A DNA stretch of 63,442 nt, filler included, from Malassezia furfur (taxonomy: Eukaryota), in NCBI GenBank assembly GCA_052055015.1. It is 18 parts of 18 records of this genome, joined end to end, with 100 filler letters (N's around TTAATTAATTAA, not from the genome) between each part and the next. Parts side by side here need not be neighbours in the genome. Positions count along the whole stretch, not along the records: positions 1 to 3,522 come from JBQJIT010000763.1; positions 3,623 to 7,136 come from JBQJIT010000764.1; positions 7,237 to 10,733 come from JBQJIT010000765.1; positions 10,834 to 14,306 come from JBQJIT010000766.1; positions 14,407 to 17,877 come from JBQJIT010000767.1; positions 17,978 to 21,438 come from JBQJIT010000768.1; positions 21,539 to 24,985 come from JBQJIT010000769.1; positions 25,086 to 28,521 come from JBQJIT010000770.1; 10 more parts are not named here. One strand, 5' to 3'. Below are positions 263 through 63,305 of this stretch, piece after piece. The notes below the pieces were generated by a model. That model made no database searches. It saw only the letters and a program-made list of their open reading frames with translations, and was not told the DNA's origin. The position numbers were made by a program, and so were the translations under genes. Within the stretch, counting starts at the first letter, position 1, and each line of letters opens with the position of its first letter.

Positions 263-1599
263 ATGGACGCCGCCCTTGCCCAGTTTGTGAGCGTGACCGG
301 CGCGTCGTCGGACACGGCACAGTACGTCGCATAGCTTACGCAGGAGCATCCTCGAGTCGACCAACGGCGACGTCTCCGCCGCACTCGCGCTGTTCTACGA
401 CCAGCACGAAGAAGACGCCGCCGCATCGCAGGCCGCGTCATCGACCCCACACGCCGCGCCCGCCACGAGCGCAGCACCTGCGGCACCTGCCGCGCCCACC
501 GGACCGCGCACACTGAGCGGCGCCGTCGCGCACGACCCTGCGCCATGGCCGTCGGCGGCGCCGCGCGCAAAAAGCAGCCAGTCACGGCCGCGCACGGGCG
601 GCATTATGTCGTTCAACGACCTGCGTGGGCGCGAGATGCCCGACGACGAGCACGACGACGACCGTGATCCTGTGAACTTGTTTACCGGTGGCGAGCGCAG
701 TGGCCTGAGTGTCGAGAACCCCGACGCGCGCCGCGGGCAGGACGACGAGAACAGCATCGTGCGCGACATCCTGTCGGAGGCCGCGTCGGCGGCGCAGGGT
801 GCGTCGCGCGCGCACGAGCTCGATCTGCACGGCTCGTCGTCGTCGCCGCGTGTGCAGGCATTCAGTGGCGCGGGCCACTCGATCGGCGGCGCGACGGTGG
901 AGCCGGAGCGGCCAGCGGCAGGGATGCCGGGCGCCTTGGGCGCCGGTGACGAGGAGGACGAGGAGGACGAGGAGCCGGCCGTGCGCCACCTGACGTTCTG
1001 GCAGGACGGCTTCTCGATCGAGGACGGGCCGCTGATGCGCTACGACGACCCGGCGAACCGCGAGACGCTCGAGGCGATCAATGCCGGACGTGCGCCGCTG
1101 TCGCTGCTGAACGTGCGCTTTGGACAGCCCGTTGAGCTGCTGGTCGCGCGGCGCACGAACGAGAAGTACGTGCCGCCGCCGCCGCCGCCGATGCAGCCGT
1201 TTGGCGGGACGGGTAACCGGCTGGGAGCGCCTGCGCCCGCGCGTCCGGCGGCGTCTACGCCTGCGCCTGCGAGCAGCGCGGCGGCGTCTACCTCTGCGCC
1301 CGCGCCGCGCGATGTGCCTGCGGTGGACGAGTCGGCGCCCGTGACGCAGATCCAGGTGCGCCTGCCCGATGGCCAGCGCCTGATTGCGAAGCTGAACCAC
1401 ACGCATACGGTGGGCGATCTGCGGCGCTACATCCAAGCGTATGTACACTATGACTGACGGATCCAGGCATCGCCCCGAGCTTGCCGAGCAGGCGTATACG
1501 CTGCAGACCGGCTTCCCCCCGCGCGCGCTCACGGCCGAGACGCAGTCGGTGGCCGACGCGCAGCTCCTCCACGCGGTGGTGATGGTGAAATTCACGTGA
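263..1599 (+). CDS. SHP1: UBX-domain Cdc48/p97 cofactor Shp1/p47 (UBA-SEP-UBX); introns 322-343 and 1439-1466
   Basis: Spliced product begins MDAALAQFVSVTG..AQSILESTNGDVSAALALFY (UBA-like). SEP domain LTFWQDGFSIEDGPL, SHP box FGGTGNRLG, UBX with GFPPR loop, TGA at 1597-1599. Confidence 0.93.
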
Positions 1600-1942
1600 A
1601 GGTCTAAGTGGAGGTTGAACCAAGATACCCACGTGATTGTACGAAGCGCGTCCGTAGTTGGATTGGCTGGCCTGTGGCCGGTGTGCCAGCACATATCGTA
1701 CCCGACCTGGATTCGTCCAATTATTGCCGGAATCGCCCGAGCCGCATGCACAATCGCCCGGCACGCAGCCTGCGCACGGCGCGGCGGCCAATATTCGGGC
1801 CAAGCACGGCGGATTTGGCAGGGTCCTTTTCCGAAGCACCGGTCGGGTTAAAACAGGTGCAATCTTCGACACTTTTCCTTACCCTCACCCCTTCTTGATC
1901 AAGTACGTTGCCTGCGAAGAAGTGCCCTTCTAACCACCAGCT

Positions 1943-2902
1943 ATGTCTTCCCCGATCTCGGAAGCCAAGGCGGCTCAGCCCAAGACTGTTAGCGGTTTCG
2001 CGACCGACTTCCTGATGGGCGGTGTGTCTGCCGCCGTCGCGAAGACGGCCGCTGCCCCCATTGAGCGTGTGAAGCTCCTGATCCAGAACCAGGATGAGAT
2101 GATCAAGCAGGGTCGTCTCGCCCAGCCCTACAAGGGCATTGGCGACTGCTTCATCCGCACCTACCAGTCCGAGGGTCTCGCCTCGCTCTGGCGCGGTAAC
2201 ACGGCCAACGTCATCCGCTACTTCCCGACGCAGGCCTTGAACTTTGCCTTCAAGGACTACTTCAAGTCGATGTTCGCCGTGTCGAAGAATGCTCCTTACG
2301 TCAAGAAGCTCGGTGCTAACATTGCCTCGGGTGGTGCTGCTGGTGCCTCGTCGCTGGTCTTTGTGTACTCGCTTGACTACGCTCGTACCCGTCTTGCTAA
2401 CGACGCCAAGTCGGCTGCCAAGGGCGGCGGTGAGCGCCAGTTCAACGGTATGATTGACGTGTACCGCAAGACGCTCGCTTCGGACGGTATCGCTGGTCTC
2501 TACCGTGGCTTCATCCCCTCGGTCGTTGGTATCATTGTCTACCGTGGTCTCTACTTCGGTCTCTACGACTCGCTCAAGCCCGTTGTCCTGCCCGGTGAGC
2601 TCTCGAAGAACTTCCTTGCCTCGTTCCTGCTCGGCTGGGTTGTTACTACTTCGGCTGGTCTCGCTTCGTACCCGCTCGACACGATCCGTCGTCGCATGAT
2701 GATGACCTCGGGTGGTACCGTGCACTACAAGAGCATGCTCGACGCTGCCAGCTCGATCGTCGCCAAGGAGGGCATGCGCTCGCTCTTCAAGGGTGCCGGC
2801 GCTAACATTCTCCGTGGTATCGCTGCCGCTGGTACCATCTCGGGCTACGACAAGCTCCAGGAGATCATGTTCGGCAAGGTGTACAAGGGTGGTTCGGGTT
2901 AA
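1943..2902 (+). CDS. AAC2: Mitochondrial ADP/ATP carrier
   Basis: RRRMMM signature, [21 protein letters not shown] and strong high-expression codon bias. Probable 5'-UTR intron at 1903-1940 (GTACGT..CTAAC..CAG). Confidence 0.97.
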
Positions 2903-3008: not shown

Positions 3009-3522
3009 TCAACAACAACCGCCCGCGGCGGTGCGGCCGCTGGCGCCGCTGCTGCCGCCCGTGCGCTCCTGCACGTTGACCAGCTCGTGGCGCGCGTCGG
3101 CGCCCGCACGCGTCGGCGGCGGCTTGACCTGGTCGAGCGGGATGTGTTTCGCTGGGTGAGCGCCGTAGGGAACGTACCAATCTCCGTAAACACCTCAAGC
3201 ACATGTTCGCCTGTCTTGGCGCTCGTCTCGAAAAAGAGCAGCTGGTTCTCGTGCGCGTACGCCTCGGCGTCCGCGTACGGCACCTCGCGCTCGGCCGGCG
3301 CGGGCGCCTCGGCGTCGTCCGCGTCGGTGTCGGCGTCGGTGTTCTCTGCGGGCGCCACGAGATCGATCTTGTTCCCGACGAGCGCGATGACGATGTGCGG
3401 GCTGGCCTGGCGCTGCAGCTCCTTGACCCATAGTTTGGCCTTCTCGAACGAGGCCTGTGTGAGGCGTGTGCGCACGTACCGCCTTGGTCACGTCGTAGAC
3501 GACGGCGCTGGCCTGTGCATTG
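3009..3522 (-). CDS. Rab5-family GTPase (Vps21/Ypt52-like), 5' truncated; introns 3455-3479 and 3152-3177
   Basis: [23 protein letters not shown] and FFETSAKTG motifs. The spliced C-terminus ends GGCC*, a geranylgeranylation motif. Confidence 0.9.
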
Positions 3523-3622
3523 NNNNNNNNNNNNNNNNNNNNNNNNNNNNNNNNNNNNNNNNNNNNTTAATTAATTAANNNNNNNNNNNNNNNNNNNNNN
3601 NNNNNNNNNNNNNNNNNNNNNN
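3523..3622. other. Artificial contig-joining spacer (44 N + TTAATTAATTAA + 44 N), first of 17
   Basis: Identical 100-bp spacer with stops in all six frames. The others start at 7137, 10734, 14307, 17878, 21439, 24986, 28522, 32054, 35583, 39097, 42588, 46078, 49555, 53030, 56503 and 59976. Contig lengths never increase along the window. Confidence 0.98.
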
Positions 3623-4443
3623 ATGTTCACGGGCCTGGGTACGTGCGGCGCACTGACGCAGTCGAGACGATTGGGCGTGTGACAGACGTGACGAAGCATG
3701 ATGCCGAGAGCGGATCATATGCGGTGACGATTGGCGACGTAGCGTCGATCTTGGATGACTGCCACACGGGCGACAGCATTGCGGTGAACGGGGTGTGCCT
3801 CACCGTGACGCACTTTGATGCATCCGCGGGCTGGTTCCGTGTGGACTTGGCCCCCGAGACGCTTTTCCGCAGCAATTTGGGTGACCTTGCTCCCGGCTCG
3901 CGCGTGAACTGCGAGCGTGCCATGTCCTCGCACACACGGTTTGGTGGCCACATCGTGCAGGGCCACGTCGATACGATCGCGCGTCTGGTGGCAATGGAGC
4001 CGAACGAGTCGGCACTGACGCTCACGCTGCGCCTGCAATACGACGCGCCGCGCCCCGGTGCCGAGACACTGCCGCTACCGTCGACATTGTCCCCTTACCT
4101 TGTGCCCAAGGGCTTTGTGACGTTAGACGGCACGTCGCTGACGCTCATCGACGTCTCGCCGCCGAATGGCGGTGCGCTCGCGGCACCCGACGACGTGATC
4201 CCCCCGACGGAAACAGTGGACTTCACTGTGATGCTCATCCCGCACACGCAGGAGCACATCGTGTTGCCGACGAAGCGCGTGGGCGATGCCGTGAACGTCG
4301 AGTTCGACATGGTTGGCAAGTACGTCTACCGCTCGATCCTTGGCCAGTTCCAGCGCCTGGACGCGTCGTCGGGCAGCGACGGCGTGCTGAGCTCCACGAT
4401 GCTCGACCGGCTCGTGGAGCGCGCGCTGCGTCGTATTACGTAG
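3623..4443 (+). CDS. RIB5: Riboflavin synthase; 23-nt intron 3639-3661
   Basis: Splicing restores the canonical N-terminus MFTGLVETIG. Also GDSIAVNGVCLTV, RFGGHIVQGHVD and KGFVTLDGTSLT. Confidence 0.96.
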
Positions 4444-4445
4444 TT

Positions 4446-7236: not shown

Positions 7237-8130
7237 GCGGCGAGACGTCCGAGCACGCGCGGCGGCTCTGGACCGAGACGCCCGAGCAGCGTGCGCAGCG
7301 CATCCTGCGGGGCGGCGACGATGCGGCGGCCGACGCGGCGGCCGACGAGGATGCGCGCGAGCGGCTTGCGCGCGAGCAGGCCGCGAAGCGCGATGCCGAG
7401 ATCCGTGCGCAGATTGAGCAGATGGTACGTATATGGCTTATGGAAGGACGCGACGCGGCGTGCGCCGTTGATGGAGCAGCACCGGCAGAAGCAGATTGAC
7501 GAGGTGAAGCGGCGGCGTGCCGAGCGGGACGGGGGCGAGCGCGGCGAGCGCGGCGAGCGCGGCGAGCGCGGCGAGCCAGGGGAGTCCGGCGAGGGAAAGT
7601 GGAGCGAGGGGCGTGCGAGGGAGTGGAGGGGTTCGGAGAAAGATCGGGAGCGGTCCGAAGGGCGCGAGCGGGCGCGTTCCGAAGGGCGCGAGCGGGAGCG
7701 TTCCGAGCGGCATGAGCGGGAGCGTGCCGAGCGCCACGCGCGCCACGAGCGGGAGCGGTCCGAGCGCCACGAGCGGCACGAGCGGGAGCGGGCCGAGCGG
7801 CATGAGCGCCACCGGCGCGAGCGGCACGAACGCGAGCGCGAGCGCTCCGAGCGCCACCGCGACGACCGGCACCGCTCCGACCGCTCCGAGCGCCACCACT
7901 CCGAGCGCCACCGGCACCGCCGGCGCTCGGCGTCGCCGCCGCGGCGCAAGACGCGTGCGGAGCGCGAGGCCGAGGACCTCGCGCACCCCCCCACGCCGCT
8001 GTTCGACAAAGACAAGGTGCTGGGCGCCGGCGCGCGCATGATGGACGAGCGCACGCGCGCGCGCACCGTCGCGGACGCCGCGGAGCTGGGTGCGCGCTTC
8101 GCGAACGGCGCGCGAGGGGCGTTTCTGTAG
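7237..8130 (+). CDS. DUF3752/GPALPP1-like protein with E/R/H-rich insert, 5' truncated; probable 22-nt intron 7425-7446
   Basis: [12 protein letters not shown] and C-terminal FDKDKVL...[10 protein letters not shown] resemble DUF3752. The intron joins the two reading frames. Confidence 0.6.
7537..7925 (+). repeat. Coding low-complexity repeat (GER/ERH/ERS units; GAGCGC/GAGCGG-rich)
   Basis: GGCGAGCGC tandem units followed by degenerate GAGCGG/CACGAG units. Confidence 0.75.
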
Positions 8131-8244: not shown

Positions 8245-9961
8245 ATGGGAAATCTGTGCAGTTGCTGTGCCGGCGCGCGCGGTCCGCAGTACGAGCCGCT
8301 CCTGCTCGACAACGAGCGGGATGCGGTGGCTGATCTCTTGCAGTACCTGGAGAGTGCGTATCGCACCGCATGCTGACGCAGACCGCTCCGAGACCGACTT
8401 TTTCGCTGGGGAGCCGCTGCGGGCGCTGTCGACGCTGTCGTTCAGCGATAACGTGGACCTGCAGCGGAGTGCGGCGCTCGCGTTTGCCGAGATCACCGAG
8501 AAGGAGGTGCGCGAGGTGGGCCGCGAGACGCTGGAGCCCGTGCTGTTTCTGCTGCAATCGCACGACGTCGAGGTGCAGCGCGCGTCGTCGGCGGCGCTCG
8601 GCAACCTCGCGGTGAACCCCGAGAACAAGCTGCTGATCGTCAAGCTCGGCGGGCTCGAGCCGCTGATCCGGCAGATGCTCAGCCCGAACGTCGAGGTGCA
8701 GTGCAACGCCGTGGGCTGCATCACCAACCTCGCGACGCACGACGAGAACAAGACGAAGATCGCCAAGTCGGGTGCGCTCGTGCCGCTGACGCGCCTCGCG
8801 CGCTCGAAGGATATCCGTGTGCAGCGCAACGCCGCGGGCGCGCTGCTCAACATGACGCACAGCGACGAGAACCGGCAGCAGCTCGTGAACGCCGGCGCGA
8901 TTAGCGTGCTGGTGACGCTGCTGGCGAGCCCCGACATGGACGTGCAGTACTACTGCACGACCGCGCTGAGCAACATCGCGGTCGACGCCGTGAACCGCAA
9001 GAAGCTCGCGCAGAGCGAGCCGCGCCTCGTGCAGAACCTCATCGGGCTGATGGAGAGCGGCAGCCTCAAGGTGCAGTGCCAGGCGGCGCTCGCGCTGCGC
9101 AACCTCGCGAGCGACGAAAAGTACCAGATCGAGATCGTGCGCAGCAACGGCCTGCCGCCGCTGCTGCGCCTGCTCCGCTCGTCGTTCCTGCCGCTCATCC
9201 TCTCCGCCGCCGCGTGCGTGCGCAATGTGTCGATCCACCCGCAGAACGAGAGCCCGATCATCGACGCGGGCTTCCTGCACCCGCTCATCGAGCTGCTCAG
9301 CCACGAGGAGAACGAGGAGCTGCAGTGCCACGCGATCAGCACGCTGCGCAACCTCGCGGCGAGCAGCGAGCGCAACAAGGCCGCGATCATCGACGCGGGC
9401 GCCGTCGAGCGCATCAAGGAGCTGGCGCTGCACGTGCCGCTGAGCGTGCAGAGCGAGATGACGGCGTGCACGGCGGTGCTCGCGCTGTCCGAGGACCTCA
9501 AGCCGCAGCTGCTCGACCTCGGCATCCTCGAGGTGCTGTTGCCGCTCACCGCGTCGCCCTCGATCGAGGTGCAGGGCAACTCGGCGGCGGCGATCGGCAA
9601 CCTGAGCAGCAAGTCGGACGACTACGCGCCGTTCAACGCGGTGTGGGACAAGCCGAACAGCGGCCTGCACGGCTACCTCGTCCGCTTCCTCGAGTCGGAC
9701 GACACCACCTTCCAGCACATCGCCGTCTGGACGCTCGTCCAGCTGCTCGAGTCGGGCAATGCCGAGCTCGAGCAGCATGTGCGCGACAGCGCGCACATCC
9801 GCGCGCTCGTGCGCCAGCTCCAGAGCCGCACCGACGCCGACGACGAGCGCGCCGACGACGACGACACGTCGCAGGCCGACTCGGCGACGCCCGAGCGCGA
9901 GATCGCCGCGCTCTCGCGGCGCATCGACGAGATCCTCGAGGGGGGGGACAACACGTCGTAG
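8245..9961 (+). CDS. VAC8: Vacuolar armadillo-repeat protein Vac8; intron 8354-8381
   Basis: Spliced N-terminus MGNLCSCC (myristoylation/palmitoylation) ... [26 protein letters not shown] repeats including [15 protein letters not shown]. Confidence 0.97.
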
Positions 9962-9994
9962 TGGTGTAGCAGCAAGGTTCTATATCAAAGGCAG

Positions 9995-10442
9995 CTATTC
10001 CTCCGGCGCGGGGTAGTTCACCTCGGGGTTGAAGAAGAGCGACTGGTTGCCCCACGGGAACTGCTTGTGCCGCAGGTTCAGGTAGCTGTACTCGGCACGC
10101 TCCGGCAGCTGCCCGTCGTTCTCCTCGAGGACGTGCTTCGTGTGCGCGTGGTGCGCGCTCTCGATCTTGTACGCGTACGCGCCAAACACGATGCACCCAG
10201 GCACCAGCACAAACAGCGACGCGTTGCGCCACATGCCGGTCGTCTCTGCGGCGTGTCAGCTCGGGGGGATGGGACAACGTACTGGCAGCATGCTCAAACG
10301 TCTCGTGACGCGCCTCGGCAAACGCCTTCGCCGCCGCCGTGTCGGGGCGCCAGTACGCCTCGGCCTCGGTGGCCAGCGAGCGGCGCGCCGCAGGCGCAGC
10401 ACGCACAAATGCAGCACGGGGGATGGCACGCAGCATCGACAT
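9995..10442 (-). CDS. COX13: Cytochrome c oxidase subunit VIa; intron 10246-10282
   Basis: Mitochondrial presequence, HAAKTTGMWRNAS, one TM helix, and YLNLRHKQFPWGNQSLFFNPEVN. Confidence 0.93.
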
Positions 10443-10833: not shown

Positions 10834-12282
10834 CGGTGCCGCGCTCGTCATCACGCCCAGCTCGCTCGCGGGCAGCAGTGCGGGCGCCGCAGGCGCACCG
10901 ACGGCCGTCAGCGGGACGGCCGAGTCGGGGCGCGTCTCGCTCGTGCTGATCGGTGGCGCCAAGGTCGGCGCGGCGTACGGCGCATGCGCCAGGGACGCGT
11001 CCGATGCGTCGGTGGCCATGTGCTCCACGCCCGAGTGCCCGTCGTGCAGCGTGAGGGTGCTGGGCGCACTGGACATCCCCGACGTCGGCGGCACCTGCAC
11101 GGTCGAGTACGGCGAGGAGGTCGACGTCGAGGGCCCACCGTGTGCCGCCGCATCCAAGGCAGGCGGCGTCGTGACCTGCGCGCGCGTAGCCGACGTCGTG
11201 ACCGACGTGGGCGCGATCGGCGTCGAAGCCAGCGACGTCGGTGCGTCGAGCGTCGCGATCGACGCGCGCGCCGATGGCGCCGTGCCCGACGCGCCGCTGG
11301 GGCGCGCTTCGCGGCCGAGGAAGAGGTCGGGCGCGGCGTTGCCGTTGGCACGCGGCTCGTGCGACGTGCCAAACAGCATGCGCGCGGGCAGCGACCGCGT
11401 GCTCTGGTCGGCCTCCTCCTTGTCGCCGAGCGGCGCGCCGCGGGGCGACACGCTCAGCCCATCGAGCTTGCGGAGCACGTCCGTGGAGCTCAGTCCGAGG
11501 AACTTGCGTGCGCTGTGCGCGCTGGACGGCGTGGCCGATTGTGCGTGCGTCTGCGACGACTCGCTCGGCTCGCGCCGCAAAAAGTTGGGCAAAAACGAAG
11601 AAGAAGAGATCCGCTGCGAGCGCCGCTGCGGCGTCGCCCCGGACGACACGTTGGGTGAGCGGGCAAGCGGCGAGGCCGCGGGCGATGCACTTGTCGACGC
11701 GCCCGACGCACCCACCGAGCGCTCGGGCGATCCGCGTGTGTGTGACATGCTCGGTGGCGATGCGGGTGTCTCGCTAATATGCTGCATCGACGCAAACGCC
11801 TGGAGCGACGCCCGCGGCTCGCTGCGCGGCGGCAGCGCAGGCGCGACCGAGTACGAGATTGCGCGTGCGTGGCGCGCGGCGGCCTGCTGCTGTTGTGTGA
11901 GCGGGCTGCTCGACAATTCGGTGGGTATGTGCGAGGGGGCGCGGCTCGGCGACGCAATCGGCGTTCCCTGCACGCCCGTAGGGAAGCGCTCACCGAGCTG
12001 CGCCGACCACCGTGGCGTGGCGAGCTCACCGATCCCGACCTGGCCGGACCGATCGTAGGTGCGTGGCGAGGCAGGCGAACTGTAGGGGTAGTCGTACGGC
12101 GAGGTAGCGGTCAGGCTTGGCATCGCCTGCGTCTGCGCCGACCGCTGAGGGGTGCCAAGACTGGGTGGACTTTGCGGCGAAGACGCCATCGCAGCCAAGC
12201 CAAACCCGTCTGCCCCGATATCGAGGGGGGGCGCAGCGACAGGATCGGCAGCCGCTCGCCAGGGAGGGCCATGCGCGTCCAT
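10834..12282 (-). CDS. Uncharacterised Ser/Pro-rich protein, N-terminal part (copy A), 3' truncated
   Basis: Long open frame from MDAHGPPW, conserved with the copy at 16431-17877 (in-frame indels only). Contains the motif GQVGIGELATPRW. Confidence 0.7.
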
Positions 12283-12525
12283 CGTAGCCGCGTCGCCAAA
12301 GTGGGGTGTGGCCGCACCGTCAGTACCGACACCGCACGATGCGTGGATGCGAGCTGCGCCGCCAACGCGAGCAGGCCCTGCAGGGTGGCGCATACACGTG
12401 CAGGACATCGGGCCCCCTAGGCCCATGTTCATGCCTCCACATGCACTCCGGCCACCGTGTGGCTGGTGCGTTGGGGATCGACGGGAGGGACAAACGACAG
12501 GGGAACCCACTCCACATTTCGGCCG

Positions 12526-13338
12526 CTACGGATTCAAGTCCAAATCAAACGCGTCGTCGTCGTCCATCGCATACGACTCGAGCGCCGCGGGCGCGGGCGC
12601 TGGCGGCTCGACCTCCATCCCACCTGCCGCAGCCGCCGCGGCCTCTGGCGGCACACCGCTCGGCTCGGGTTGGAGCACTCCACCCGCCGCGTCCGCATAC
12701 AAAATGCCCTGCCGCATCAACCGGTCCGAGGGGAACGGCAGCTCTTGCGGCATCGTAGGGATCGCGGGATCGTAGTAGCCAGCGGCACGCGTCGCATCAG
12801 GGTTATAGTCAGGTGCAAGGCGCTGTGAGCGGTCGTCGCCCTTGGGCGCCTGGGGGTCAGGCTGCAGGCGGTAGCCGGGCGGCGCCGAGGTGTACCGCGC
12901 CAAGCGCTGGGCATAAGCAAGTACGGCCGTAGGCGACAGGGGGTCTGTGGGTCAGCATTGCACGCCCGACGTACCGTCTTCAGCGCGCTGCATCTCGTCG
13001 CGCTCGGCGTCCGCGGCATCCAAAAGAGCTTGCAGCTCAGAACGGAGCGACGCAATCTGCGCAATGCTGTTCCGCTGCAGGGTATCACGCTCTTTGATGC
13101 GTCGGAGCAGCGGGTCAAGTCGCGCCTGGTTTGCTTGGTGCGCAGCAGCCAGCCCCAGTGTCGTGGGCAGCGACGCCTCCAACGAGGTCAGTGCCGCGAG
13201 GTGCTCGCCAATCGCATCCGTCTCATCAACACCGTGCTGATCTAGTGCCGCGTTGCGCGCGAGCTCGTCAAAGAGCGACTGGGCATGCGTGCGCAATGCC
13301 CCCAGCACGCCCCCGAGCTCCGCCTGCAGCGTTCCCAT
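12526..13338 (-). CDS. MED4: Mediator subunit Med4 (copy A); intron 12945-12974
   Basis: Coiled coil, then AVLAYAQRLARYTSAPPG...PFPSDRLMRQGIL and acidic tail FDLDLNP, typical of fungal Med4. Confidence 0.82.
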
Positions 13339-13390
13339 CCGCCGTCGTCGGTGGAGGTCGAGACCAGCCACTCCACATCGACGCACGCCC

Positions 13391-14306
13391 ATGGCCGAGC
13401 GCGCGGCGCGCGGCGCGTCGTCGCTGTACGCCGGCATTTTTGGCCCAGCGGACGACAAAGAGCAGAAAAGTGGTGAGGTCCAATCACAGCCGCACGCAGT
13501 CATGCTGCCCCCTGCCAGTGACGAGGCTAGTCCTCTTGCCTCCCCGCCAGATCTCCACAACCCTGCGCCTTTACGCGCCCGGGCAGACGCACCCGCGGCC
13601 TGGTCCCCCGCGCTCCGATTCGTGCCAAGGAAGCGGACAGAGCGAGTGCGTACCACCAAAAGCGCGATACATCTCCTACCCTCGGCCACGCACGAGGCAG
13701 TAACGCACGAAACACCCCGACCGTCCGCATCCACCCACCCTGCCTCGGTGGAGACGCCCACAGCCGGGGCGGAGCAGCACCCGCCCCCCGCCCCACCACC
13801 GCTGCGCTTGCCCGATTCCGAGCTGGAAAGAGACCGTGAGCGTGCACGCGCGGTGGCCGAGGCGTACAGCGAGCTCGAGGCCGAGTCGCTGGACACGGAC
13901 GAGGTGGATGAATTCCACGCGCATCATCCACGCAAAGTAGGTCGCTTCGCTCACCCAGAAACCACGGAGGGTACACTCATCGTCGGTCTCGGCGCTTGTG
14001 CGCAGTTTGAATGCAGACTATGACCCCGCTGTGCCGAACGATTATACCCAGCTCAGGGCACTCATAAACGAGCGCCGCCGTCGTCACCCGGATACGGACA
14101 GGTGGGAGGGCGAAGACGAAGAAGATCGAGGCCATGCACATCGCTTCCGCAAATTCGCCCCACCGTCGTCTTATACCCCCGTTGCACCGGCCCACGCCAT
14201 CCAGGAAGCGATCGAGGTGGGCTCTACGTACACCGACCCGAGTGCCGAACAATCCGTGCGGCGGTCCCCTGGGCCCCCACCTAAGTCACCACCAAGGCCC
14301 CCACCT
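13391..14306 (+). CDS. Splicing factor SPF45/RBM17-like, N-terminal part (copy A); 22-nt intron 13937-13958
   Basis: SLYAGI, WSPALRFVP, SPF45-type DYDPAVPNDY and FAPPSSY motifs. Truncated before the expected G-patch. Confidence 0.7.
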
Positions 14307-14406: not shown

Positions 14407-15319
14407 GGGACCTGGCGGGGGACCTGGCGGAGGCCCAGGAGAGCGCCGCACATTTTGCCCGACAGCCGAGTCGGTGCGCGCATAGTCCATTTCGACTGCC
14501 TCCTGGACTGCATGAGCGGGCACGCTGGGGGTATAGGACGGCGGCGGGGCGAATTTGCGGAAACGGCGTGCATAGCCTCGATCTTCTTCCTCGTCTTCGC
14601 CTTTCCACCGATTCGCATCCGCGCGACGGCGTCGGCGCTCGTTCATGAGCGCCTTGAACTGGGTATAATCGTTTGGCACAGCAGGGTCGTAGTCTGCATT
14701 AAGACTGCGCACCAGCGCCAAGGCAGGTGACGGGTGTTCCCTCCGTGGTTTCTGGGTGAGCAAACCGACCTACTTTTCGAGGATGTTGCGCATGGGACAC
14801 ATCCACATCGTCCGTCTCGAGGGGTTCGGCATCCAGCTCGCCGTATACTTCGGCTACTGCGCGCGCGCGCGCGCGGTCTCTTTCCAGCTCGGCCTCTGGG
14901 AGGCGCAGAGGCGGCGTGGCAAATGACAAAGGCTGTTCTGCCTGCGTCGAAGGCGACTCCACCGAGGCGGGGTGAGTAGGTGCAGACGGTTGGGGGGCCT
15001 CGTGCGCTGCTGCCCTGTGCGTGACCGGGGGCAAGAGGTGGATGGCACTTTTCGTGGTACGCGCACGCTCTGTCCGCTTCCTTGGCACAAATCGGAGAGC
15101 GGGTGACCAGTTTGCCGGCGCGTCAGTCTGGACCTGCGACGCTGCAGGCTCGTGTGGAGCTGGCGGAGAAGCAGGCATGTTGGCCGCGTCGCTGGGCGCA
15201 TGGGGCGCATCCGTGTGCGGTTGCGACTGGGTCTCGCCACCCGGCTCCTTCTTCTCGTCATCTGGCCCGAAAATGCCGGCGTACAGCGACGACGCGCCGC
15301 GCGCCGCGCGCTCGGCCAT
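14407..15319 (-). CDS. Splicing factor SPF45/RBM17-like, N-terminal part (copy B); 22-nt intron 14752-14773
   Basis: Diverged homolog of 13391-14306 with the same motifs and intron position. Confidence 0.7.
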
Positions 15320-15371
15320 GGGCGTGCGTCGATGTGGAGTTGCTCGTCTCGACCTCCACCGACGACGGCGG

Positions 15372-16188
15372 ATGGGAACGCTGCAGGCGGAGCTCGGGGG
15401 TGTGCTGGGGGCGTTGCGCACGCATGCCCAGTCGCTCTTTGACGAGCTTGCGCGCAATGCGGCACTAGACCAACACGGCGCCGATGAGACGGACGCGATC
15501 GGTGAGCACCTCGCGGCGCTGGCCTCTCTGGAGGCGTCGCTGCCCACGACGCTGGGACTCGCTGCCGCGCACCAAGCGAACCAAGCGCGGCTCGACCCGC
15601 TGCTCCAACGCATCAAGGAGCGTGATACCCTGCAGCGGGACAGCATCGCGCAGATCGCGTCGCTCCGTTCCGAGCTGCAAGCTCTTTTGGATGCCGCGGA
15701 CGCCGAGCGCGACGAGATGCAGCGCGCCGAGGACGGTACGTTGGCCCACCCCCCCATGCTGACCTATAGAACCCCTGTCACCCGCGGCCGTACTAGCGTA
15801 TGCCCAGCGCTTGGCGCGGTACACTTCGGCGCCGCCCGGCTACCGCCTGCAGCCAGACCCCCAGGCGCCGAAGGGCGACGACCGCGCGCAGCGTCTTGCG
15901 CCTGACTATAACCCCCACGCGACGCGTGCTGCTGGCTACTATGACCCTGCGATCCCTACGATGCCGCAAGAGCTGCCGTTCCCCTCGGACCGGCTGATGC
16001 GGCAGGGCATTTTGTATGCGGACGCGGCGGGCGGTGTGCTCCAGCCGGAGCCGGGTGGTGCGCCGGCCGAGGCTGCTGCTGCTACTGCGAGTGGGATGGA
16101 CGTCGAGCCGCCTGCGCCTGCGCCGGCGGCACTCGAGTCGTATGCGATGGACGACGACGATGCGTTTGATTTGGACTTGAATCCGTAG
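15372..16188 (+). CDS. MED4: Mediator subunit Med4 (copy B); intron 15736-15769
   Basis: Near-identical protein to copy A, with many synonymous changes. Confidence 0.82.
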
Positions 16189-16430
16189 CTGCCGAAATGT
16201 GGAGTGGATTCCCCTGTCGTCCTCCCCTCCCGATGATCCCCAGCGCACCAGCCACACGGTGGCCGGCGTGCATGTGGAGGCATGAGCACGGGCCTAAGAG
16301 GCCGAGTGTCCTGCACGTGTATGCACCACCCTGCAGGGCCTGCTCGCGTTGGCGGCGCAGCCTCGCATCCACGCATCGTGCGGTGTCGGCGCTGACGGTG
16401 CGGCCACCCCACTTTGGCGACGCGGCTACG

Positions 16431-29500: not shown

Positions 29501-29548
29501 CTATCTAGCCGGCGCGGTAAGCATGCCTCTCAGCGGGAACGCAACCAC

Positions 29549-49877: not shown

Positions 49878-50563
49878 ATGGCGAATCCGAGGCAGCGGCG
49901 CAAGTCGCGCTCGTCCAAGTACTCGGGCGCGACCAAGAGCGCCAAGCGCGCGCAGAACAAGCGCATCCACCGTGCGCCGACGGTCATGGGACCCGATGTG
50001 CTGCGCGAGAACTGGGATAAGACGCTGACGACGCGGCAAAACTATGCCAAGCTCGGCCTCGCGCCCTCGCTCGGGCTCCCGACCGGCGGCCTGGACCGCA
50101 AGGACCCGTACCGGCACGCCGAGGCGCCCGCGAAGCCGAGCAAGCAGCCGCGCAAGGGCATGGCGCGCATCGTGCGCGACGAGAACGGCGAGGTGGTCGA
50201 CATTGTCGAGGGCGACGAAGAGCACACCGAGACGACGCCGTGGGGCGCGGTGCTGAACGACGACGAAGACGAGCCCGCGGACCTGACCATGTTCCCGCCC
50301 AAGCTTCACGAGGAGGAGGGCGAGACGGTGCGTGCGCTGTCGGAGCTGGCCAAGGAGGCCAAGCCCGTGGAGCGCTATGTGTCGCACGGCGAGGCGTCGT
50401 GGCTCGTGGACCTTGTGCGTGCGCACGGCGAAGACGTGGACGCCATGGCGCGCGACCGTGTGCGGAATATCCAGCAGCGCACCCCCGGCGAGATCCGGCG
50501 CGCGTACGTATGCATCACTCACGCAGCATCCGCAAGGCCGGTGGGTTTGCGGCGTTTTTGTAG
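49878..50563 (+). CDS. NOP16: Nucleolar protein Nop16; 23-nt intron 50504-50526
   Basis: MANPRQRRK, NWDKTLTTRQNYAKLGL and HGEDVDAMARDRVRN.QQRTPGEIRRAI. Confidence 0.92.
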
Positions 50564-50606: not shown

Positions 50607-53029
50607 ATGGGCAACGCCCTGTCCGGCACGAGCAACCGGCTTGGCGGGGCCGGCGAGCTCATGCTGGATAGCCAGTTGCAGTATGAGAGTAGTATGGGTT
50701 CGTCCCGATTCCTGCGTGCGACGCGCGTGCGGCACCCGCTCGGCCCGCTGGTCGTCAAGACGTTTATCAAGCCGGACGCGTCGATGCGCCTGCGGCGCTT
50801 TGTGCGCCGCCTGAAGCGTACGTGTGCGCGCTGACGCAGTGGAGCGCGAGGCGCTGAGCGACGTGCCCAACGTGCTCACGTACCAGGAGGTGATCGAGAC
50901 CGAGGAGGCCGGCTACCTCGTGCGCCAGTGGCTCATGTGCAGCCTGTACGACCGCATCAGGTACGTTGGCCCACCGCGCTGACGCAGCACGCGCCCCTTT
51001 CTCGCGCCGTCCGAGAAGCTGTGGATCAGTTACCAGCTGCTGTATGCCATGACCGCGTCGTCGGAGCGCCACGTCGCGCACGGCGACCTTAAGTGCGAGA
51101 ATGTGCTGGTCACTTCGTCGCTCTCTGTGTACATTACCGACTTTGCCTCGTCGTTCAAGCCGACCTACCTCCCGCTCGACGACCCGGCCGACTTTTCGCT
51201 CTTTTTCGATACCGCGCGCCGGCGGACGTGCTATGTGGCGCCCGAGCGCTTCTACGACTCGCTCAGCGAGCTCACCGACCGCGTGCAGCAGCTCGACGTG
51301 CCCGGCCTGCACGCGGACGACGTCGAGAACGTCTCGGAGCTGCTCACGCGCGAGCCGTACCTCGAGACGCTCGGGCTTGGGCGCCCGAGCGGGTGCGTCA
51401 CGGAAAAGATGGACGTCTTTTCCCTTGGCTGCGTGCTTGCGGAGGTGTGGCGCGACGGCGCTCCGCTCTTTACCCTGTCGCAGCTCTTCCGCTACCGCGA
51501 CGGGCAGTACGACGTCGGCGCACTGCTCGGCGAGATCCCGCACGACGGCATCCGCGGCGTCATCGCGCGCATGGTGCACGTCGACCCTACGGAGCGGCCG
51601 ACGTTTGCCGAGCTGCTGGCGGACGCCAGTGCGTCCGTCTTCCCGCCGGCCTATGCGGCGTTCCTGCACGCCTACCTCGTGGAGCTGCAGCGCCCGTCGC
51701 ACGGCACACCCTCGCCGGGCGACGCGGACGTCGAGACGCGTAAGCTGCGCCTCGCACGCGCGCTCGAGCCCGACGAGCGCATCGAGCAGCTGTACGAGGA
51801 CTGGGCGCTACTCGTCCCGTCGCTCGGCGCGATGGGCGAGCCCGTAGACGGCGCACCGCTCGCGCTCGGTGTCTGCCTGCCGCACGTCGCGCTCCCCGAG
51901 CCCGCGCCGCGCCGCGCGCGCGCGCCTGCGGACACCGAGGCGCTCATTGTGCTTTCGGTGCTGCTTGCCAACGTGCGCAACTGCCGGCGCGCCACGGCAC
52001 GGTGCCATGCGATCGAAATGGTCGTGCACCTCGCGTACGGCTGGTTGACGGACGAGGCGTGCCTCGACCGTGTCGTGCCGTACCTCGTGCGCCTGCTCGA
52101 CGACGCGCACGCGCTGTGCCGTGCGTCTGCGCTGCATGCGCTCGTGGCCGTGCTCGAGTGCGTCGCGACGACGACGCGCGGCAACATCGGCCTGTTCCCC
52201 GAGTACGTCTGGCCGCACGTGCAGCGCCTGACGCACGACACGAGCGTCGCTGTGCGCACGGCGTACGCGGCGCACCTCGCGCGCCTCGTGCAGTGCGCCG
52301 CGCGCTTTGTGCACTACGAGCACGCCGAGCGCGACGAGCCGACGGGCGCCGACACGTACGATGCCCAGATGGAGCGCCTGCGCCTCACCGCGCAGGAGCA
52401 GACGCTCCTCCTGCTCACCGACGCGTCCGCGGACGTGCGCCGCGCGCTGCTCGCCGACCTCGGGCAGCTGGGCGTGCTCCTCGGCGCGGCGCGCGTCGAG
52501 TCGTCGCTGCTGGGCCACCTGTTGACCTACTTCAACGACCCCGACTGGGCGCTGCGCAACGCCTTTTTCCGCGCGCTCGAGCAGCTTGTGCCGCTGCTCG
52601 GCGCACACACGATCGAGCACGCCGTGCAGCCGCTGCTGGTCCAGGCGCTTGGCGACGCGGAAGAGTGGGTCGTAGTCGATGCGCTGCGCAGTTTCCGCAG
52701 CCTGCAGCGCGCGGGCCTCTTTCGCGACGCGGCGCGCGACGACCTGCTCCGCCGCGCCGCGGGCCTGCTGTGCCACCCCAACGCGGCGATCCGCACGGCC
52801 GCTGCCGGTGCGTTTGCCGAGGCGGCCGCGCACGCCTCGCCCACCGACGCATGGACGCGCGTGTACCTCTTGCTGCGCCCCCGCCTACGTAGCGACGTTG
52901 TGGCGCTCGACGAGGCGTCGATTACGCGCGCGCTCGTTGCGCCGCTCCCGCGCGCGGTGCTCGCCGCGGCCGTCGCCGCCAAGGCGCACGGCCACGGCGT
53001 GTTTCTCGCGTACTGGCAGCGCCGCGCGG
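50607..53029 (+). CDS. VPS15: Vps15 kinase-like PI3K regulatory subunit, 3' truncated; introns 50818-50839 and 50961-50987
   Basis: MGN myristoylation start, MGSSRFL, LYDRISTRPFL, HGDLKCEN, TDFASSFKPTYLP.DDP.DF..FFDT and HEAT repeats. Confidence 0.95.
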
Positions 53030-55998: not shown

Positions 55999-56502
55999 AT
56001 GGGCAGTGAGCGCGCGGGGGGCACGGCGTCGAGCAGCCGTGTGACGCTCGAGTCGCTGCGCAAGGCGCGCGCGGCGGAATGGAATGCCGAGATTGCGTAC
56101 GTGCACCCGCTGACGCAGCCAACTCACGGCGTCGCGCCGCGCCGACATACACCGCCTGTACTACATGCTGCAGACCGCCGAGCAGCACGCCGACGACGCC
56201 GCGCGGCCGCCCGGCGCGCTGCCGGGCGACGCGGATGCCGCGCTCGATAAGGTCGTGCTCGAGGGAGAGAGGTACGTCGGCCGCCGCACTCACGCAGTGC
56301 CGCCGCGCTCCAGAAGCGCGTCGACGACGCCGTCCAGGCGCTCCAGAAGCGGGCGCACGAGGTGCTCGAGGGCGCGCCCGAGGCCAAGGACGACGCGTCC
56401 CACGCGCCCAATGACACACAGACACACGCGCCGAAAGACGCGCCGAACGACGCACCCAGCGCGCCGCCCGCCGAAGCGCCGCCCGCCGAGCCTGCCCGGC
56501 CG
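55999..56502 (+). CDS. Uncharacterised protein, N-terminal fragment; introns 56097-56118 and 56272-56297
   Basis: Two canonical short introns join three open frames: MGSERAGG...EIAQLTASRRADIHRLYYMLQ...AALQKRVDDAVQ. Confidence 0.55.
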
Positions 56503-56602: not shown

Positions 56603-57349
56603 AGTGTGTGCAGCGCACGCAGCGCATTGGGCGGCGGCGTGCTCAAAGTGCAGAGGCCATTGGCCGCGAGTTCGAGGGTGCCGAGGCGCGGCAGTCCGGT
56701 GCTCAGCGCACATACGTCTGCCCACGATGTCTGCGCGGCGTTCAAGGCTAGGTGCGTGAGGTGCGGCCATATGGGTGGTTCTGTAGGTGCGGCGAGGCGG
56801 GTATGGCTGGGTGAGCGACACACGTACGACAAAATGAGGGTGTCTAAGCGCGGCACGCCGGCGGCCAAGTTGTGTAGCGCGTTCCACGATGGTAGGAGCG
56901 CGTAGGAGAGGTCGATGGCAGAGACATGGGCGCATGCACGGTGAATGGCATCCACGTCGTCGATTGACGCGATATACACACTGGATGCATCTGGCACGGC
57001 GGGTGGCGGAGCGCCGCCGGTGAGAGAGAGCCAGGTGCGGACGTGGCCCTCGTACTTTTCGTGGAGCGCGTGGAGGAACGTGGTACCCCACTGGATGGGT
57101 GCGGAGGCGCGCACAAAGCCCGCATGAAGCGGCTCGCTGCGGCGTCAGCGGCGATGTAGGTGTGCCGACGTACGTGGTAAAGTAGCGCGTGCCGTCGGGA
57201 CCGACGCCGTCGTGTTTCCCGCGCCGCGCGCGGTCCCATGCGACGCCGATCCACACGCCAGGCTCAGGCGGGAGTGGCCCGACATAGCGCACCGTGCCGT
57301 ACTCGCCGCGGTACACGAGGCGTGCACCGATGCGTGCGCTCGAGTCCAT
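56603..57349 (-). CDS. PAC2: Tubulin-folding cofactor E (CAP-Gly + LRR), 3' truncated; introns 57137-57173 and probably 56807-56827
   Basis: GTVRYVG...WIGVAWD..RGKHDG, FLHALHEKY, and LRRs (IDLSYALL, LELAANGL). Confidence 0.9.
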
Positions 57350-59975: not shown

Positions 59976-60075
59976 NNNNNNNNNNNNNNNNNNNNNNNNN
60001 NNNNNNNNNNNNNNNNNNNTTAATTAATTAANNNNNNNNNNNNNNNNNNNNNNNNNNNNNNNNNNNNNNNNNNNN

Positions 60076-60392
60076 CACGGTGTTCGCCGTGTACTGCGTG
60101 ATGCGCACGACCATGTTCTTGTCGAGCGTGCGGTCCTCGACGAGCGGCTTGAGCTGCGTCGCAAGCATGGCTGCAGGGTGAGTGGGGGGCGCACACGCAC
60201 GCACGTACCTTGCGCATAGTACACGCCGTCGCTCAACACGACGCGGTAGCGCTCGCTGACGTTGGCGCTCGCGTTGCTGGTTTGGAGTTTCTTGAGACTG
60301 AGCACCTGGCACACGGGGTCCGCGACCGCGGAGCCGCTCGATGCGTCGAGCATCTGCGCCAGGACGCCCGAGGTGAGTTCTTCGACCGCCAT
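60076..60392 (-). CDS. RFA1: Replication protein A large subunit, N-terminal fragment; intron 60171-60208
   Basis: LTSG...PVCQVLSLKK...RYRVVLSDG..YAQAMLATQL (RPA70N OB fold). Confidence 0.92.
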
Positions 60393-60640
60393 GCTACGCG
60401 TTCGCCGGTGGCAAGAGCGTGGCGCGTGCCGCGGCGCGCGCGCGGCGCGTCGCGTGCGCCTCCCCCGCGCCCACGCGCCCTTCGGCCGAATCGGCCGAGA
60501 GATAAATGGCGCCCAAGGCGGCGCGCGTGGTCGACGGGCGTCTGGGGACGAGGGCGCCGCATTTGCGCCCGGCTGCATCCCTTCCTGCACCGCGTCGGGC
60601 GAGGCGATGCACTAGCGACCACGCCGGCCCCCTTCCCAGC

Positions 60641-63305
60641 ATGGACGAGCGACCCAAACAAGGGTGGAACTGGGTACGTCACGCGCACGCGCACTCACAC
60701 GCAGTCCCACACCATCCCCCAGGCCTCCCAGGTCCACCGCGAGCGCGCCCACTTCTTCGCACCGCAGCAGGCGCCCGAGGATGCGCGCCCTCCCCCGCCG
60801 CGCCCCGACTCGCGCAGCGCCTTGAGCGCGACGCACCCCGCCTCGCTCGCGCCCAACACGCAGTCGCCGCCGAGCGGCCAAAGCACCGCGTCGTCGTCGT
60901 CGCCCACAGCGTCGTCCGCCCTGCACAGCGGCGCGCTCGGCTCGCCGGTTACACGCACCTCGCAGCTGCGCACCGCCAACGCGATGCCCACGCACCGCGC
61001 CTCGCCGCCGCCCACCGTGCTGAGCCGCGGCAAGGCGGCGCCCGCACCGGCGCTCACCGGCGCGTCGCTCGGGTCGGTGGCCCCCGCCTACCTCTCGCGC
61101 CCCACGCGCGATGCGCGCGCCCCCGCCAACGCGCCCTCGACGTCGTCCGCCTCCGAGACCGAAACCGAGACCGAGACCGAGGGTGAGACCGAGACCGAGA
61201 CCGAAACCGACACCGACGCCGACGCCGAGCCGGACGATGTGCGCGCCGCGCGCCGCGAAGAACACGAGAGCCGCATGCCTTTCTTATACCCCGTGCCGCA
61301 AGACATGGCCGAGCAGATGCCCATCCCCTCGAGCGGGTTCGCCACGCCGCGCGGCTCGCTGTCGGCCGCCGGCACGCCGCGCATCGACACATTGGGCGTG
61401 TCGCCGGGGATGGGCGCGTTTGGCGGGCGGGCAACGACGCCCATCTGGGGGCCCGGCAGCCTGTCGGGCGCGAGCACCAGTGCGGGCTTCGCGGCCTCGC
61501 GGCGCTCGTCGCACAGCCGCCTGCCCTCGCTCAACCTGGGCCCGCGCGACGCCTCCTACACCGGCACGTCGGGCGGGTGGGGCAGCCTGCGCGGCACGGC
61601 GCTGCCCTCGCCGCGCACCGCGTCGGGGATGCCGTCGTACCTGCGCTCGGGCAGCCTGCGCACGCCGACGCTGCCGTCGGCGATCGAGGGCCACCCGACG
61701 AGCTTCCATCGCCCGTCGCTCACGCCGAGCGACGTGCCGGGCGCGCCGAGCGGCGCCGAGTCGCCACACGCGCTCTCCTCGTCGAACGATGCGCCGCTCG
61801 GCCCGTCGGCCATCTCGATGCAGCGCCGGCGGTCGAGCATGGTCGGCCAGCCCGCGCTGTGGATGACGTCGCGGCCCAGCTCACCGAGCGCCAGCGCCAT
61901 GATCACGCCGACGCAGCGCGATTTTCCCATCTCGCGCTCGCCGTCGGTGTTTGTGTCGCCGATGGTGTCGGCGGGCGCCGGCGAGGACGCGGCGCTCGCC
62001 GAGGTCACGCAGCGCCTGTCGCACCTGCCGTCGCCCATGGCGCAGAGCCCCGGGACGCCCGCCACGCCCAGCGGCTGGGCAGGCGCGCCGGGCGGCGACA
62101 TGCCGCTCACCGGCGCCCAGCTCGACTCACTGCACGCCGAGCTGGGGAACAAGCCGCTGTGGCAGCGGCGCGAGGCGACGCCGCTGCGCCTCTCGCGCAC
62201 GGGCTCCTCGACGTCGTTCCGCAACGTGCCCCCGAACGCCACACCGCCGGGGGCGCATACGCCGCGCACGCCGCTCGACGAGGCCAAGGACCGCGAGCTC
62301 TTCGAAGAGATCCGCGCGAACCGCTACTCGTCGATGCAGCCGTCGCCGCGCGGGCCGTTCGACCCGACGGCGGTGCTGCAGCGCGTCACGCAGTCGCTGC
62401 AGGAGCTGGGCTACGATGCGCCGCAGCGCACGCTGCCCTTCCGCCGCACGCGCGGCGCGAGCCTTAGCACCGTCGAGGACCCACTCGTGCTGCACGCGCC
62501 GCCCAAGGACGGCGAGGAGACCCTCCCGCCATACCTGTGCACGGTGCACATCGAGGGCTTCCTCCCGCGCAAGGTGGAGCTGGAGCGCTCGGGCGAGCCG
62601 GCGACGGGGCGCGGGTGGAAGCGCTGCTACGTCGTGCTGCAGGGCACGACGCTCCACGTCTACGACACGGACGTCTCGACGCTGTACGACCGCACGTGCA
62701 ACGCCGCGTTCGTCTGGCAGCTGCACAACGCCACGCACGTCCACACCGAGCCGCTCAGCGAGGCATGGCAGCCACCCACGCAGCCCGCGACGCGCGACGC
62801 AGGCGCAGACACCAACGCGTCCGACGGGCTGCTCAACAAGGGCTACGCCCTCGCCTCGGCCGTCGGCTCGTCGCTGCTCGCCTACGGCAAGGACACGCCC
62901 GACGCCGTTGCCGCGCGCCGCACCGCGCTCGAACAGGCGCTGCGCCAGCATCACGTACGCTCCTACTCGCTGCAGTGGGGCGAGTGCGGCTTTGCCGCCG
63001 ACTACACCAAGCGGCGCCACGTGATCCGCGTGCGCGCCGAGGGCGAGCAGTTCCTGCTACAGACACGCAACGACTTCCACATGGTGGAGTGGATCGAGGC
63101 GCTCCAGGCGGCGATCAACGTATCCCTCGACCTCGACGGGCGGCCGATGCCCAAGTTTGCAACGCTCCCGCGCCGCCGCCGCCGCCGACGCGGCTCGGAA
63201 GCCATCGCGCTCCGCTCGGACCGCCACGCCGCCGACCCGGCGGCGGGCGCACGTCCCTCGCACACCTCACACACTTCCGCGGCCCCCACGCCGATGGTGG
63301 CATAG
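60641..63305 (+). CDS. PH-domain protein of the YHR131C/YNL144C type with a long Ser/Pro-rich N-terminus; intron 60674-60704
   Basis: LPPYLCTVHIEG..RK.E, W...YVVLQGT.L, YSLQ.GE.G.A.DY.KR..V.RVRAEGEQFLL, WIE.LQA.....DLD.R.MP and PRRRRRR. Confidence 0.8.

Follow-up and report, generated by a model that had tools for sequence, protein, structure and literature searches.

The window and its intron candidates

The 63,442-nucleotide (nt) stretch of Malassezia furfur DNA analysed here (the window) carries 43 candidate spliceosomal introns, nearly all of them tiny, over roughly 43 recognised genes, a density of about one intron per gene by hand count. The window is made of 18 contigs, sorted by length from 3,522 down to 3,367 nt, and is not one locus. 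Identical 100-nt linkers of the form N44-TTAATTAATTAA-N44 separate the contigs, the first at 3523-3622, then every ~3.5 kb, and the last at 59976-60075; no intron candidate crosses a linker. The linkers truncate the VPS15 gene, a WAC/DDT gene and the RPA N-terminal domain, and segments that lie side by side are not neighbours in the genome. The overall G+C content is 66%. A VPS15 exon shares 99% identity with the NCBI protein VPS15 [Malassezia furfur], 94% with a second M. furfur protein and 93% with a M. brasiliensis protein, and the top match of an acyl-CoA-synthetase exon is in M. psittaci (76%), followed by other Malassezia. Judged from such protein matches, the source is a Malassezia furfur-like yeast.

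Two of the contigs, at 10834-14306 and 14407-17877, are reverse-complement copies of each other with 74-90% identity. They look like diverged homeologous or allelic copies, from a hybrid genome or from two strains in the assembly. The apparent 7-kb palindrome that they form is no feature of the genome: each arm is a whole contig, and only concatenation has put the two side by side. Three genes are common to both copies: a gene of an unnamed family, Med4, and a gene for a protein with G-patch homologues, whose N-terminal part is encoded at 13391-14306 (plus strand) and again at 14407-15319 (minus strand). We take this protein, from its conserved motifs, to be SPF45/RBM17-like. A second gene of related interest encodes an SPF30/SMNDC1-like Tudor protein at 32439-33107 (minus). 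SPF30 and SPF45 are accessory factors of complex spliceosomes.

The intron candidates stand far above chance expectation. A loose motif search gave 54 matches, against 15 +/- 3.8 in Markov-1 shuffles of the window, and the tight motif GT[AG][CAG]GT-N3-26-CTNAC-N1-4-YAG gave 39 matches at 37 loci, against means of 1.2, 1.0 and 0.5 in shuffles of Markov order 1, 2 and 3 (100 shuffles each, maximum 4). Variants added while the genes were read, namely the donors GTATGT and GTACGC, the branch CTGAT and longer spacers, brought the set to 43. G+C at third codon positions combined with a codon score separated real frames poorly by itself in this G+C-rich DNA, and a gene model restricted to the motif served for exon drafting only.

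The anatomy of the 43 candidates is highly uniform. Their median length is 26 nt and their mean 27.8 nt (range 21-48); 42 are no longer than 38 nt, and eight measure exactly 22 nt. All 43 have GT..AG ends. The donor is GTACGT in 30, GTAGGT in five, GTGCGT in four, GTGGGT in two, and GTATGT and GTACGC in one each, so that position +5 is G throughout and position +6 is T in 42. There is no U12-type donor among them, neither of the GTATCC type nor with AT-AC ends. The putative branch motif is CTGAC in 24, CTCAC in 12, CTAAC in three, CTTAC in two, and CTTAT and CTGAT in one each, with the form CTNAC in 41; agreement of donor and branch site with a consensus is partly circular as a test, because the candidates were found using that motif. 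Acceptors are CAG in 39, TAG in three and AAG in one.

The spacing of these signals is as constrained as their sequence. From the presumed branch A to the intron end the distance is 5 nt in 27 of the 43 and 6-8 nt in 13 more (range 5-13, never less than 5), and in 27 the CTNAC motif is followed by the AG dinucleotide after 2 nt, that is, by one nucleotide before YAG. In 42 candidates the acceptor is the first AG past the presumed branch A; the exception is the RPS16 gene, where an AG at 4 nt is skipped for one at 7 nt. Counted from the donor side, the branch A falls at intron position 16-35 (median 21) and at position 16-17 in ten, and at least 6 free nt always remain between the donor hexamer and the branch pentamer. 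T makes up 18% of intron bases, and in the spacer between the A and YAG 7% of the letters are A and 5% are T, the remainder being C and G. Position -5 is C in 32 candidates and position -4 is G in 24. There is no pyrimidine tract between branch and AG, and C-rich runs of 6-9 nt occur upstream of the branch site in nine candidates.

An earlier note on this DNA had listed 11 such elements, spoken of about 40 introns of mostly 21-38 nt, and described a stereotyped GTACGT...CTNAC-N-YAG layout. The 11 elements all lie where it put them and have GT..AG ends, those at 14752-14773 and 29588-29610 on the minus strand; the count of 43, with a single candidate of 48 nt beyond the quoted range, agrees with its estimate, and the 39 tight-motif matches against about one in shuffles bear out the layout. 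Its assignment to spliceosomal-type introns of Malassezia is likewise supported. Its statement that there is no polypyrimidine tract holds for the interval between branch and AG and needs qualifying upstream of the branch, where nine candidates have C-rich runs of at least 6 nt.

Protein homology across the junctions

Several kinds of homology evidence were applied to the junctions. Each flanking exon was scanned separately with Pfam and the profile coordinates were checked for continuity over the junction; in addition, spliced models were aligned to fetched homologues, and coordinates on PDB chains were also used. The junction was fixed with a slack of one residue or less in 16 of the 43 candidates, and compatible domain evidence, meaning the same domain on both sides or a domain ending at the junction, was found for 13. 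None of these 29 candidates, for which a domain or a homologue was available for comparison, failed.

Pfam continuity is exact at several junctions. In a Shp1/p47-like gene (UBA-SEP-UBX), the 22-nt intron at 322-343 (plus) separates UBA_4 positions 1-18, which run to the last upstream residue, from position 21 at downstream residue 2, and a second intron of 28 nt at 1439-1466 (plus) leaves one residue of slack, with UBX position 37 at the exon end and 43 at downstream residue 6. The Med4 profile goes from 73 to 82 with the exact residue count in both copies of that gene, across an intron of 30 nt at 12945-12974 (minus) in the fourth contig and of 34 nt at 15736-15769 (plus) in the fifth. Exact continuity is likewise found across the 24-nt intron at 20024-20047 (plus) of a glycoside hydrolase family 47 (GH47) mannosidase gene (Glyco_hydro_47 position 194, then 199) and across the 38-nt intron at 60171-60208 (minus) in the RPA large-subunit N-terminal domain (Rep-A_N position 51, then 54).

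The duplicated contigs add evidence of another kind. The SPF45/RBM17-like gene has a 22-nt intron at 13937-13958 (plus) in the fourth contig and at 14752-14773 (minus) in the fifth, and both this intron and that of Med4 stand at the same positions in the two copies. A coding sequence could not accommodate the 4-nt length difference between the two Med4 introns. Between the SPF45-like copies, substitutions number 32, 32 and 85 at the first, second and third codon positions of the upstream exon and 23, 16 and 38 in the downstream exon, and this third-position excess falls in two frames that are connected only through splicing. The homologue P0290 aligns without a gap across the 22-nt junction of both copies.

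Alignment to full-length homologues fixes a further group of junctions. In an acyl-CoA-synthetase-like gene, removal of introns of 22, 22 and 26 nt at 36079-36100, 36813-36834 (with the CTGAT branch) and 37481-37506 (all plus) leaves no gap against intron-less bacterial homologues and most of the 15 sequences aligned; at the first of these junctions 13 of 15 homologues, bacterial ones included, are gap-free and two Malassezia models fail, and over all three junctions there are three Malassezia gene models that break down, each at one or two of them. In VPS15, removal of the 22-nt intron at 50818-50839 and the 27-nt intron at 50961-50987 (both plus) leaves no gap against most of 15 orthologues, among them fungal, insect and plant proteins. 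At the first junction 11 of 15 rows are gap-free, including smut, rust-relative, mushroom, insect and plant sequences, and the four others comprise two M. furfur models that lack the upstream exon and two rows that are cut or divergent just upstream; at the second, 14 of 15 are gap-free and the M. cuniculi model is short of 14 residues. All the failing rows are Malassezia gene models.

In the SPF30/SMNDC1-like gene, removal of a 28-nt intron at 33066-33093 and a 26-nt intron at 33023-33048 (both minus) restores the conserved N-terminus, which aligns to basidiomycete SPF30 homologues. Between the two lies a micro-exon of 17 nt at 33049-33065 (minus), itself supported by the alignment. For the RPS16 intron, the yeast uS9 chain 3j6x_16 aligns with residues 3-60 on exon 1 and 62-143 on exon 2. 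Exactly one residue remains between the two for the codon that the intron splits, so that the intron is the 28-nt form at 40691-40718 (plus), which passes over the AG at 40714-40715; a shorter form of 25 nt, using that first AG (40691-40715), was ruled out by the same alignment.

The compatible cases are spread over many families. In a Rab-type GTPase gene, the Ras profile stands at position 156 of 162 on the last residue upstream of a 26-nt intron at 3152-3177 (minus), and it resumes at 86 on downstream residue 2 after a 25-nt intron at 3455-3479 (minus), whose upstream exon is mostly masked by a linker. Lum_binding begins at position 6 on downstream residue 2 after the 23-nt intron at 3639-3661 (plus), which follows codon 5 of a riboflavin-synthase-like gene. 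The COX6A profile resumes at 37 on the first residue downstream of a 37-nt intron at 10246-10282 (minus), the WAC profile of a WAC/DDT chromatin-factor gene resumes at 18 on downstream residue 2 after a 25-nt intron at 34373-34397 (plus), and Lgl_C begins at 81-82 on downstream residue 3-4 after a 25-nt intron at 48496-48520 (plus) in a Lgl/Sro7-like gene. A second GH47 intron, of 31 nt at 20564-20594 (plus), separates Glyco_hydro_47 positions 334 and 350 with about five residues of slack, and the Tom22 profile covers 1-42 upstream and 39-136 downstream of a 30-nt intron at 26814-26843 (minus).

An alpha/beta-hydrolase gene contains two of these introns. The first, of 30 nt at 33298-33327 (plus), is in frame and free of stops; unspliced, the gene would have 97 residues over 89 profile positions, and the downstream exon resumes at position 32. 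The second, of 21 nt at 33626-33646 (plus), links two Abhydrolase_1 halves, and its retention would bring a stop after five codons. The 24-nt intron at 37788-37811 (plus) of a RINGv gene is also in frame without a stop, with RINGv position 30 of 47 at the exon end and 55 residues over 47 positions if unspliced. The Nop16 profile reaches 204 of 210 at the exon end before a 23-nt intron at 50504-50526 (plus) near the Nop16 C-terminus, and CAP_GLY stands at 51 of 65 on the last residue upstream of a 37-nt intron at 57137-57173 (minus) in a CAP-Gly/LRR (tubulin cofactor E-like) gene.

Removal of the introns was said in the earlier note to restore conserved protein motifs. This is the case for the 16 fixed junctions and is compatible with the 13 others just described; the remaining 14 candidates are supported by frame logic (11), lie in 5' leaders (two) or have two possible acceptors (one). 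Its 11 named examples divide in the same way: six are placed by homology (322, 13937, 14752, 36079, 36813 and 50818) and two are domain-compatible (3639 and 50504), whereas 29588 and 56097 are calls from frame logic and 7425 has two possible acceptors.

Probably ordinary introns near the smallest workable size

Very probably, in our view, the candidates are ordinary GT-AG introns of the major, U2-dependent type in a M. furfur-like yeast, shrunk close to the smallest size at which such introns can work. Three short signals would hold nearly all of the information, namely the 6-nt donor (GTACGT or GTRNGT), the CTNAC branch site and the CAG acceptor. CTNAC could pair with the branch-binding sequence of U2 with the A bulged, and splicing would proceed by intron definition in the conventional U2-type manner. 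The gap from branch site to AG is too short to hold a pyrimidine tract, so that branch and AG would most likely be recognised together as a single composite 3' signal, as they are in Yarrowia, Trichomonas and Giardia. The second step would then use the first AG able to reach the active site, at least 5 nt past the branch A and mostly exactly 5 (CTNAC-N-CAG). The lower limit of 21-22 nt, with the branch A at 16-17, may be set by the 6 unconstrained nt needed between donor and branch site, and the pile-up of lengths at 21-22 nt suggests a physical floor.

The components of this arrangement have published counterparts. In the curated annotation of M. sympodialis (Zhu et al. 2017, PMC5389616), 5350 introns are given for 4493 genes, with a mean of 30 bp and 99% supported by RNA sequencing, and a review terms Malassezia introns 'very short'. 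M. sympodialis resembles the present case in its genus, its mean length (30 bp vs 27.8 nt here) and its density of about one intron per gene; the window sequence differs in being M. furfur-like and much richer in G+C. The main text of PMC5389616, as distinct from its supplement, has no occurrence of 'branch' and describes no branch-to-AG spacing, and literature searches within main texts returned nothing on Malassezia branch sites, their spacing or splicing factors.

The anchored branch site is documented in other lineages. According to passages of Irimia and Roy (2008, PMC2483917), intron-poor lineages have a strong WCTRAY branch consensus, have lost the 3' pyrimidine tract and keep a fixed branch-to-AG distance; TACTAAC is 2 nt from AG in Yarrowia lipolytica and 4 nt from it in Trichomonas vaginalis and Giardia lamblia. 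The 2-nt spacing of Y. lipolytica equals the modal CTNAC-NN-AG found here, with an anchored branch and no tract in both, and the C at -5 and purine at -4 reported in those passages recall the C (32 of 43) and G (24 of 43) at these positions in the window. In contrast, the introns of Y. lipolytica are long (mean ~269 nt in the same source), whereas here the anchoring is joined to a total length of 21-38 nt. Malassezia is absent among the 50 species listed in these passages. Giardia, Trichomonas and Spironucleus are described by Hudson et al. (2019, PMC6679479) as having the branch point and 3' splice site fused into a composite motif, and shifting the branch motif by 2 or 7 nt abolished splicing in T. 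vaginalis. These protists differ from the present case in a branch-to-AG distance of at least 4 nt, against 2 nt here, and in having very few introns, some of them trans-spliced, against about one per gene here.

Comparably short introns are also on record. For ciliates, microsporidia, dicyemids and myxozoans, published medians are 22-27 nt, with a pyrimidine tract that is absent or very short and a machinery judged canonical (PMC13644364, Hadjez et al. 2026; PMC5014332, Bondarenko and Gelfand 2016). Myxobolids have reduced splice-site motifs and, for a branch signal, just a weak run of A, whereas all three signals are strong here. Schizosaccharomyces pombe shares the fungal CTRAY-type branch near the 3' end, and differs in a median branch-to-3'-end distance of 12 bases (Bitton et al. 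2014, PMC4079972), against 5 here. The idea of the earlier note is therefore not supported as new: very short introns are already published for M. sympodialis (PMC5389616) and anchored branches for Y. lipolytica, Trichomonas and Giardia (PMC2483917). It is a further lineage of a known kind and not a new system, with short introns published for the genus and the anchored layout published elsewhere.

A bolder extension, which we regard as unlikely, is that nearly all Malassezia introns sit at the geometric floor of the spliceosome, with a 16-17 nt lariat and three nt from branch A to AG, and that their 3' end is recognised constitutively without a pyrimidine-tract reader. One candidate route would be the SPF45/RBM17-like G-patch factor encoded in the window acting with the U2 small nuclear ribonucleoprotein, and the rule of the first AG at 5 nt or more would reflect the minimal reach of the second-step active site. 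Malassezia would then rely mainly on what in human cells is a side route for short introns. The link that keeps this reading alive is the replacement of U2AF by SPF45 on human short introns with truncated tracts, and in Cryptococcus loss of RBM17 affects introns with an unusual distance from branch to 3' splice site.

Several points weigh against reading all 43 candidates as such introns, and part of them feed a rival explanation in which a sizeable share (say at least five of the 43) is not spliced at all and consists of chance motif matches in coding sequence or leaders, or of in-frame segments that are translated. All calls rest on DNA and protein homology, and the branch point is deduced from consensus rather than mapped. 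The motif admits short spacers only, so a few introns with long spacers or weak signals may be missed and the length range may be biased downward; a free GT..AG Viterbi gene model allowing introns of 15-150 nt was dropped, as many of the long introns it returned were implausible and its noise was too high to judge the bias. An Rfam scan of the window gave no match, and so no small nuclear RNA gene. The 14 candidates without homology support comprise 11 from frame logic, two leader candidates known from the motif, and the one at 7425, for which the acceptor may give 7425-7446 (plus; 22 nt, with the atypical AAG) or 7425-7479 (55 nt, same frame), with DUF3752 in the upstream exon only. Lengths are not a multiple of three in 31 of the 43; of the 12 multiples, eight contain an in-frame stop and three (33298, 37788 and 56807) are stop-free and could also be read through, a count that leaves out the twelfth, the 36-nt candidate at 18852-18887. 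High G+C, moreover, yields long spurious open frames.

For most of the frame-logic calls the consequence of retention or the gene context can be stated. A stop would follow after seven codons if the 28-nt intron at 8354-8381 (plus) of a Vac8-like ARM-repeat gene were retained, and its downstream exon aligns to a Vac8 chain from residue 2, the upstream exon having matched nothing in PDB. Retention would likewise bring a stop after six codons at 24869-24892 (plus, 24 nt), in a gene without family assignment, and after two codons at 46387-46416 (plus, 30 nt), in the Lgl/Sro7-like gene. A protein-kinase gene has a 23-nt intron at 29588-29610 and the longest candidate, of 48 nt, at 29505-29552 (both minus), the latter giving a stop after seven codons if kept; between them is a micro-exon of 35 nt at 29553-29587 (minus), which is called by frame logic. 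In the gene for a mu-subunit of an adaptor-protein (AP) complex, a 36-nt intron with the GTACGC donor at 18852-18887 follows the third codon by sequence reading and frame logic, and a 32-nt intron at 18755-18786 has a weak Clat_adaptor_s match downstream (both minus). A small gene without family assignment carries introns of 22 nt at 56097-56118, with a positive codon score on both flanks, and of 26 nt at 56272-56297 (both plus). The two last are a 21-nt intron at 56807-56827 (minus) in the CAP-Gly/LRR gene and a 31-nt intron at 60674-60704 (plus) near the start of a PH-domain gene.

We think it quite improbable that as many as five of the 43 go unspliced. Chance would produce about one match to the tight motif over the window, all 29 comparable candidates behaved as introns, and those without homology support share the same signals and are oriented like the coding sequence of their genes. 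Among the three stop-free multiples of three, two would, if kept, insert 8-10 residues within a Pfam domain.

We give similarly little credence to a rival on the side of mechanism, in which a modified assembly route or changed factors are needed because a 16-17 nt lariat with a fused branch and 3' end cannot hold U1, SF1, U2AF and U2 together. Its arguments are geometric, namely the branch A at 16-17 in ten candidates and the 2 nt from CTNAC to AG in 27, which leave a pyrimidine-tract reader no room to bind, together with the presence in the window of an SPF45-like gene. In human cells SPF45/RBM17 takes the place of U2AF on some short introns whose pyrimidine tract is truncated. However, layouts as tight as this one or tighter are spliced elsewhere with no change of route shown: Y. 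lipolytica has the same spacing (PMC2483917), and myxozoans, with 22-bp median introns, retain the canonical U2 branch-binding region and U2AF1/2 (PMC13644364). The signals here are of the general fungal GTNNGT and CTRAY types, and the SPF30- and SPF45-like factors encoded in the window speak for a full rather than a reduced machinery.

Public gene models and further features of the window

The value of these introns for splicing biology is modest, and their consequence for annotation is larger. Public models of several Malassezia species mis-handle these tiny introns, with fusions, translated introns, ends inside introns, residues missing near junctions and wrong N-termini; the models affected are P0121, P0122, P0149, P0001, P0003, P0006, P0241-P0248, P0289 and P0291-P0293. 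In one M. furfur 'VPS15' model, Nop16 and VPS15 are fused; this model misses the 23-nt intron near the Nop16 C-terminus and skips the 22-nt one. One homologue carries the peptide VCPWLTQ exactly at the site of the 22-nt SPF45-like intron, and this peptide looks like the translation of a 21-nt intron. Aberrant N-termini are seen in several SPF30 models, a 17-nt micro-exon has been dropped, and models from M. psittaci and M. cuniculi are short of 13-14 residues beside a junction. The proteomes of these skin yeasts should be re-annotated in a way that takes such introns into account and accepts sizes down to about 20 nt. Malassezia is also a transformable fungus in which most introns are 21-30 nt long and have strong and simple signals, and it could be used to determine how short a distance from donor to branch, and from branch to AG, a full spliceosome will accept.

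The two 5'-leader candidates have features in common. One, of 38 nt at 1903-1940 (plus), is separated by 2 nt from the start codon of a mitochondrial-carrier gene, and the other, of 37 nt at 40460-40496 (plus), directly abuts the ATG of RPS16. They are among the longest candidates and have the same 3' end, CTAACCACCAG, with the branch A 7 nt from the end.

The contig at 42688-46077 has a G+C content of 42-57%, against 62-69% elsewhere in the window. It contains no convincing intron of the motif type, and its three longest open frames gave no Pfam match; it may come from another organism or be an unusual region. Finally, an in-frame TAG at 18463-18465 (minus) lies within the AP-complex mu-subunit gene, between ..DFGYP and NSEMN..., and the adaptor domain goes on in the same frame directly downstream. 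The gene could be a pseudogene, or the TAG a sequencing error or a site of read-through.

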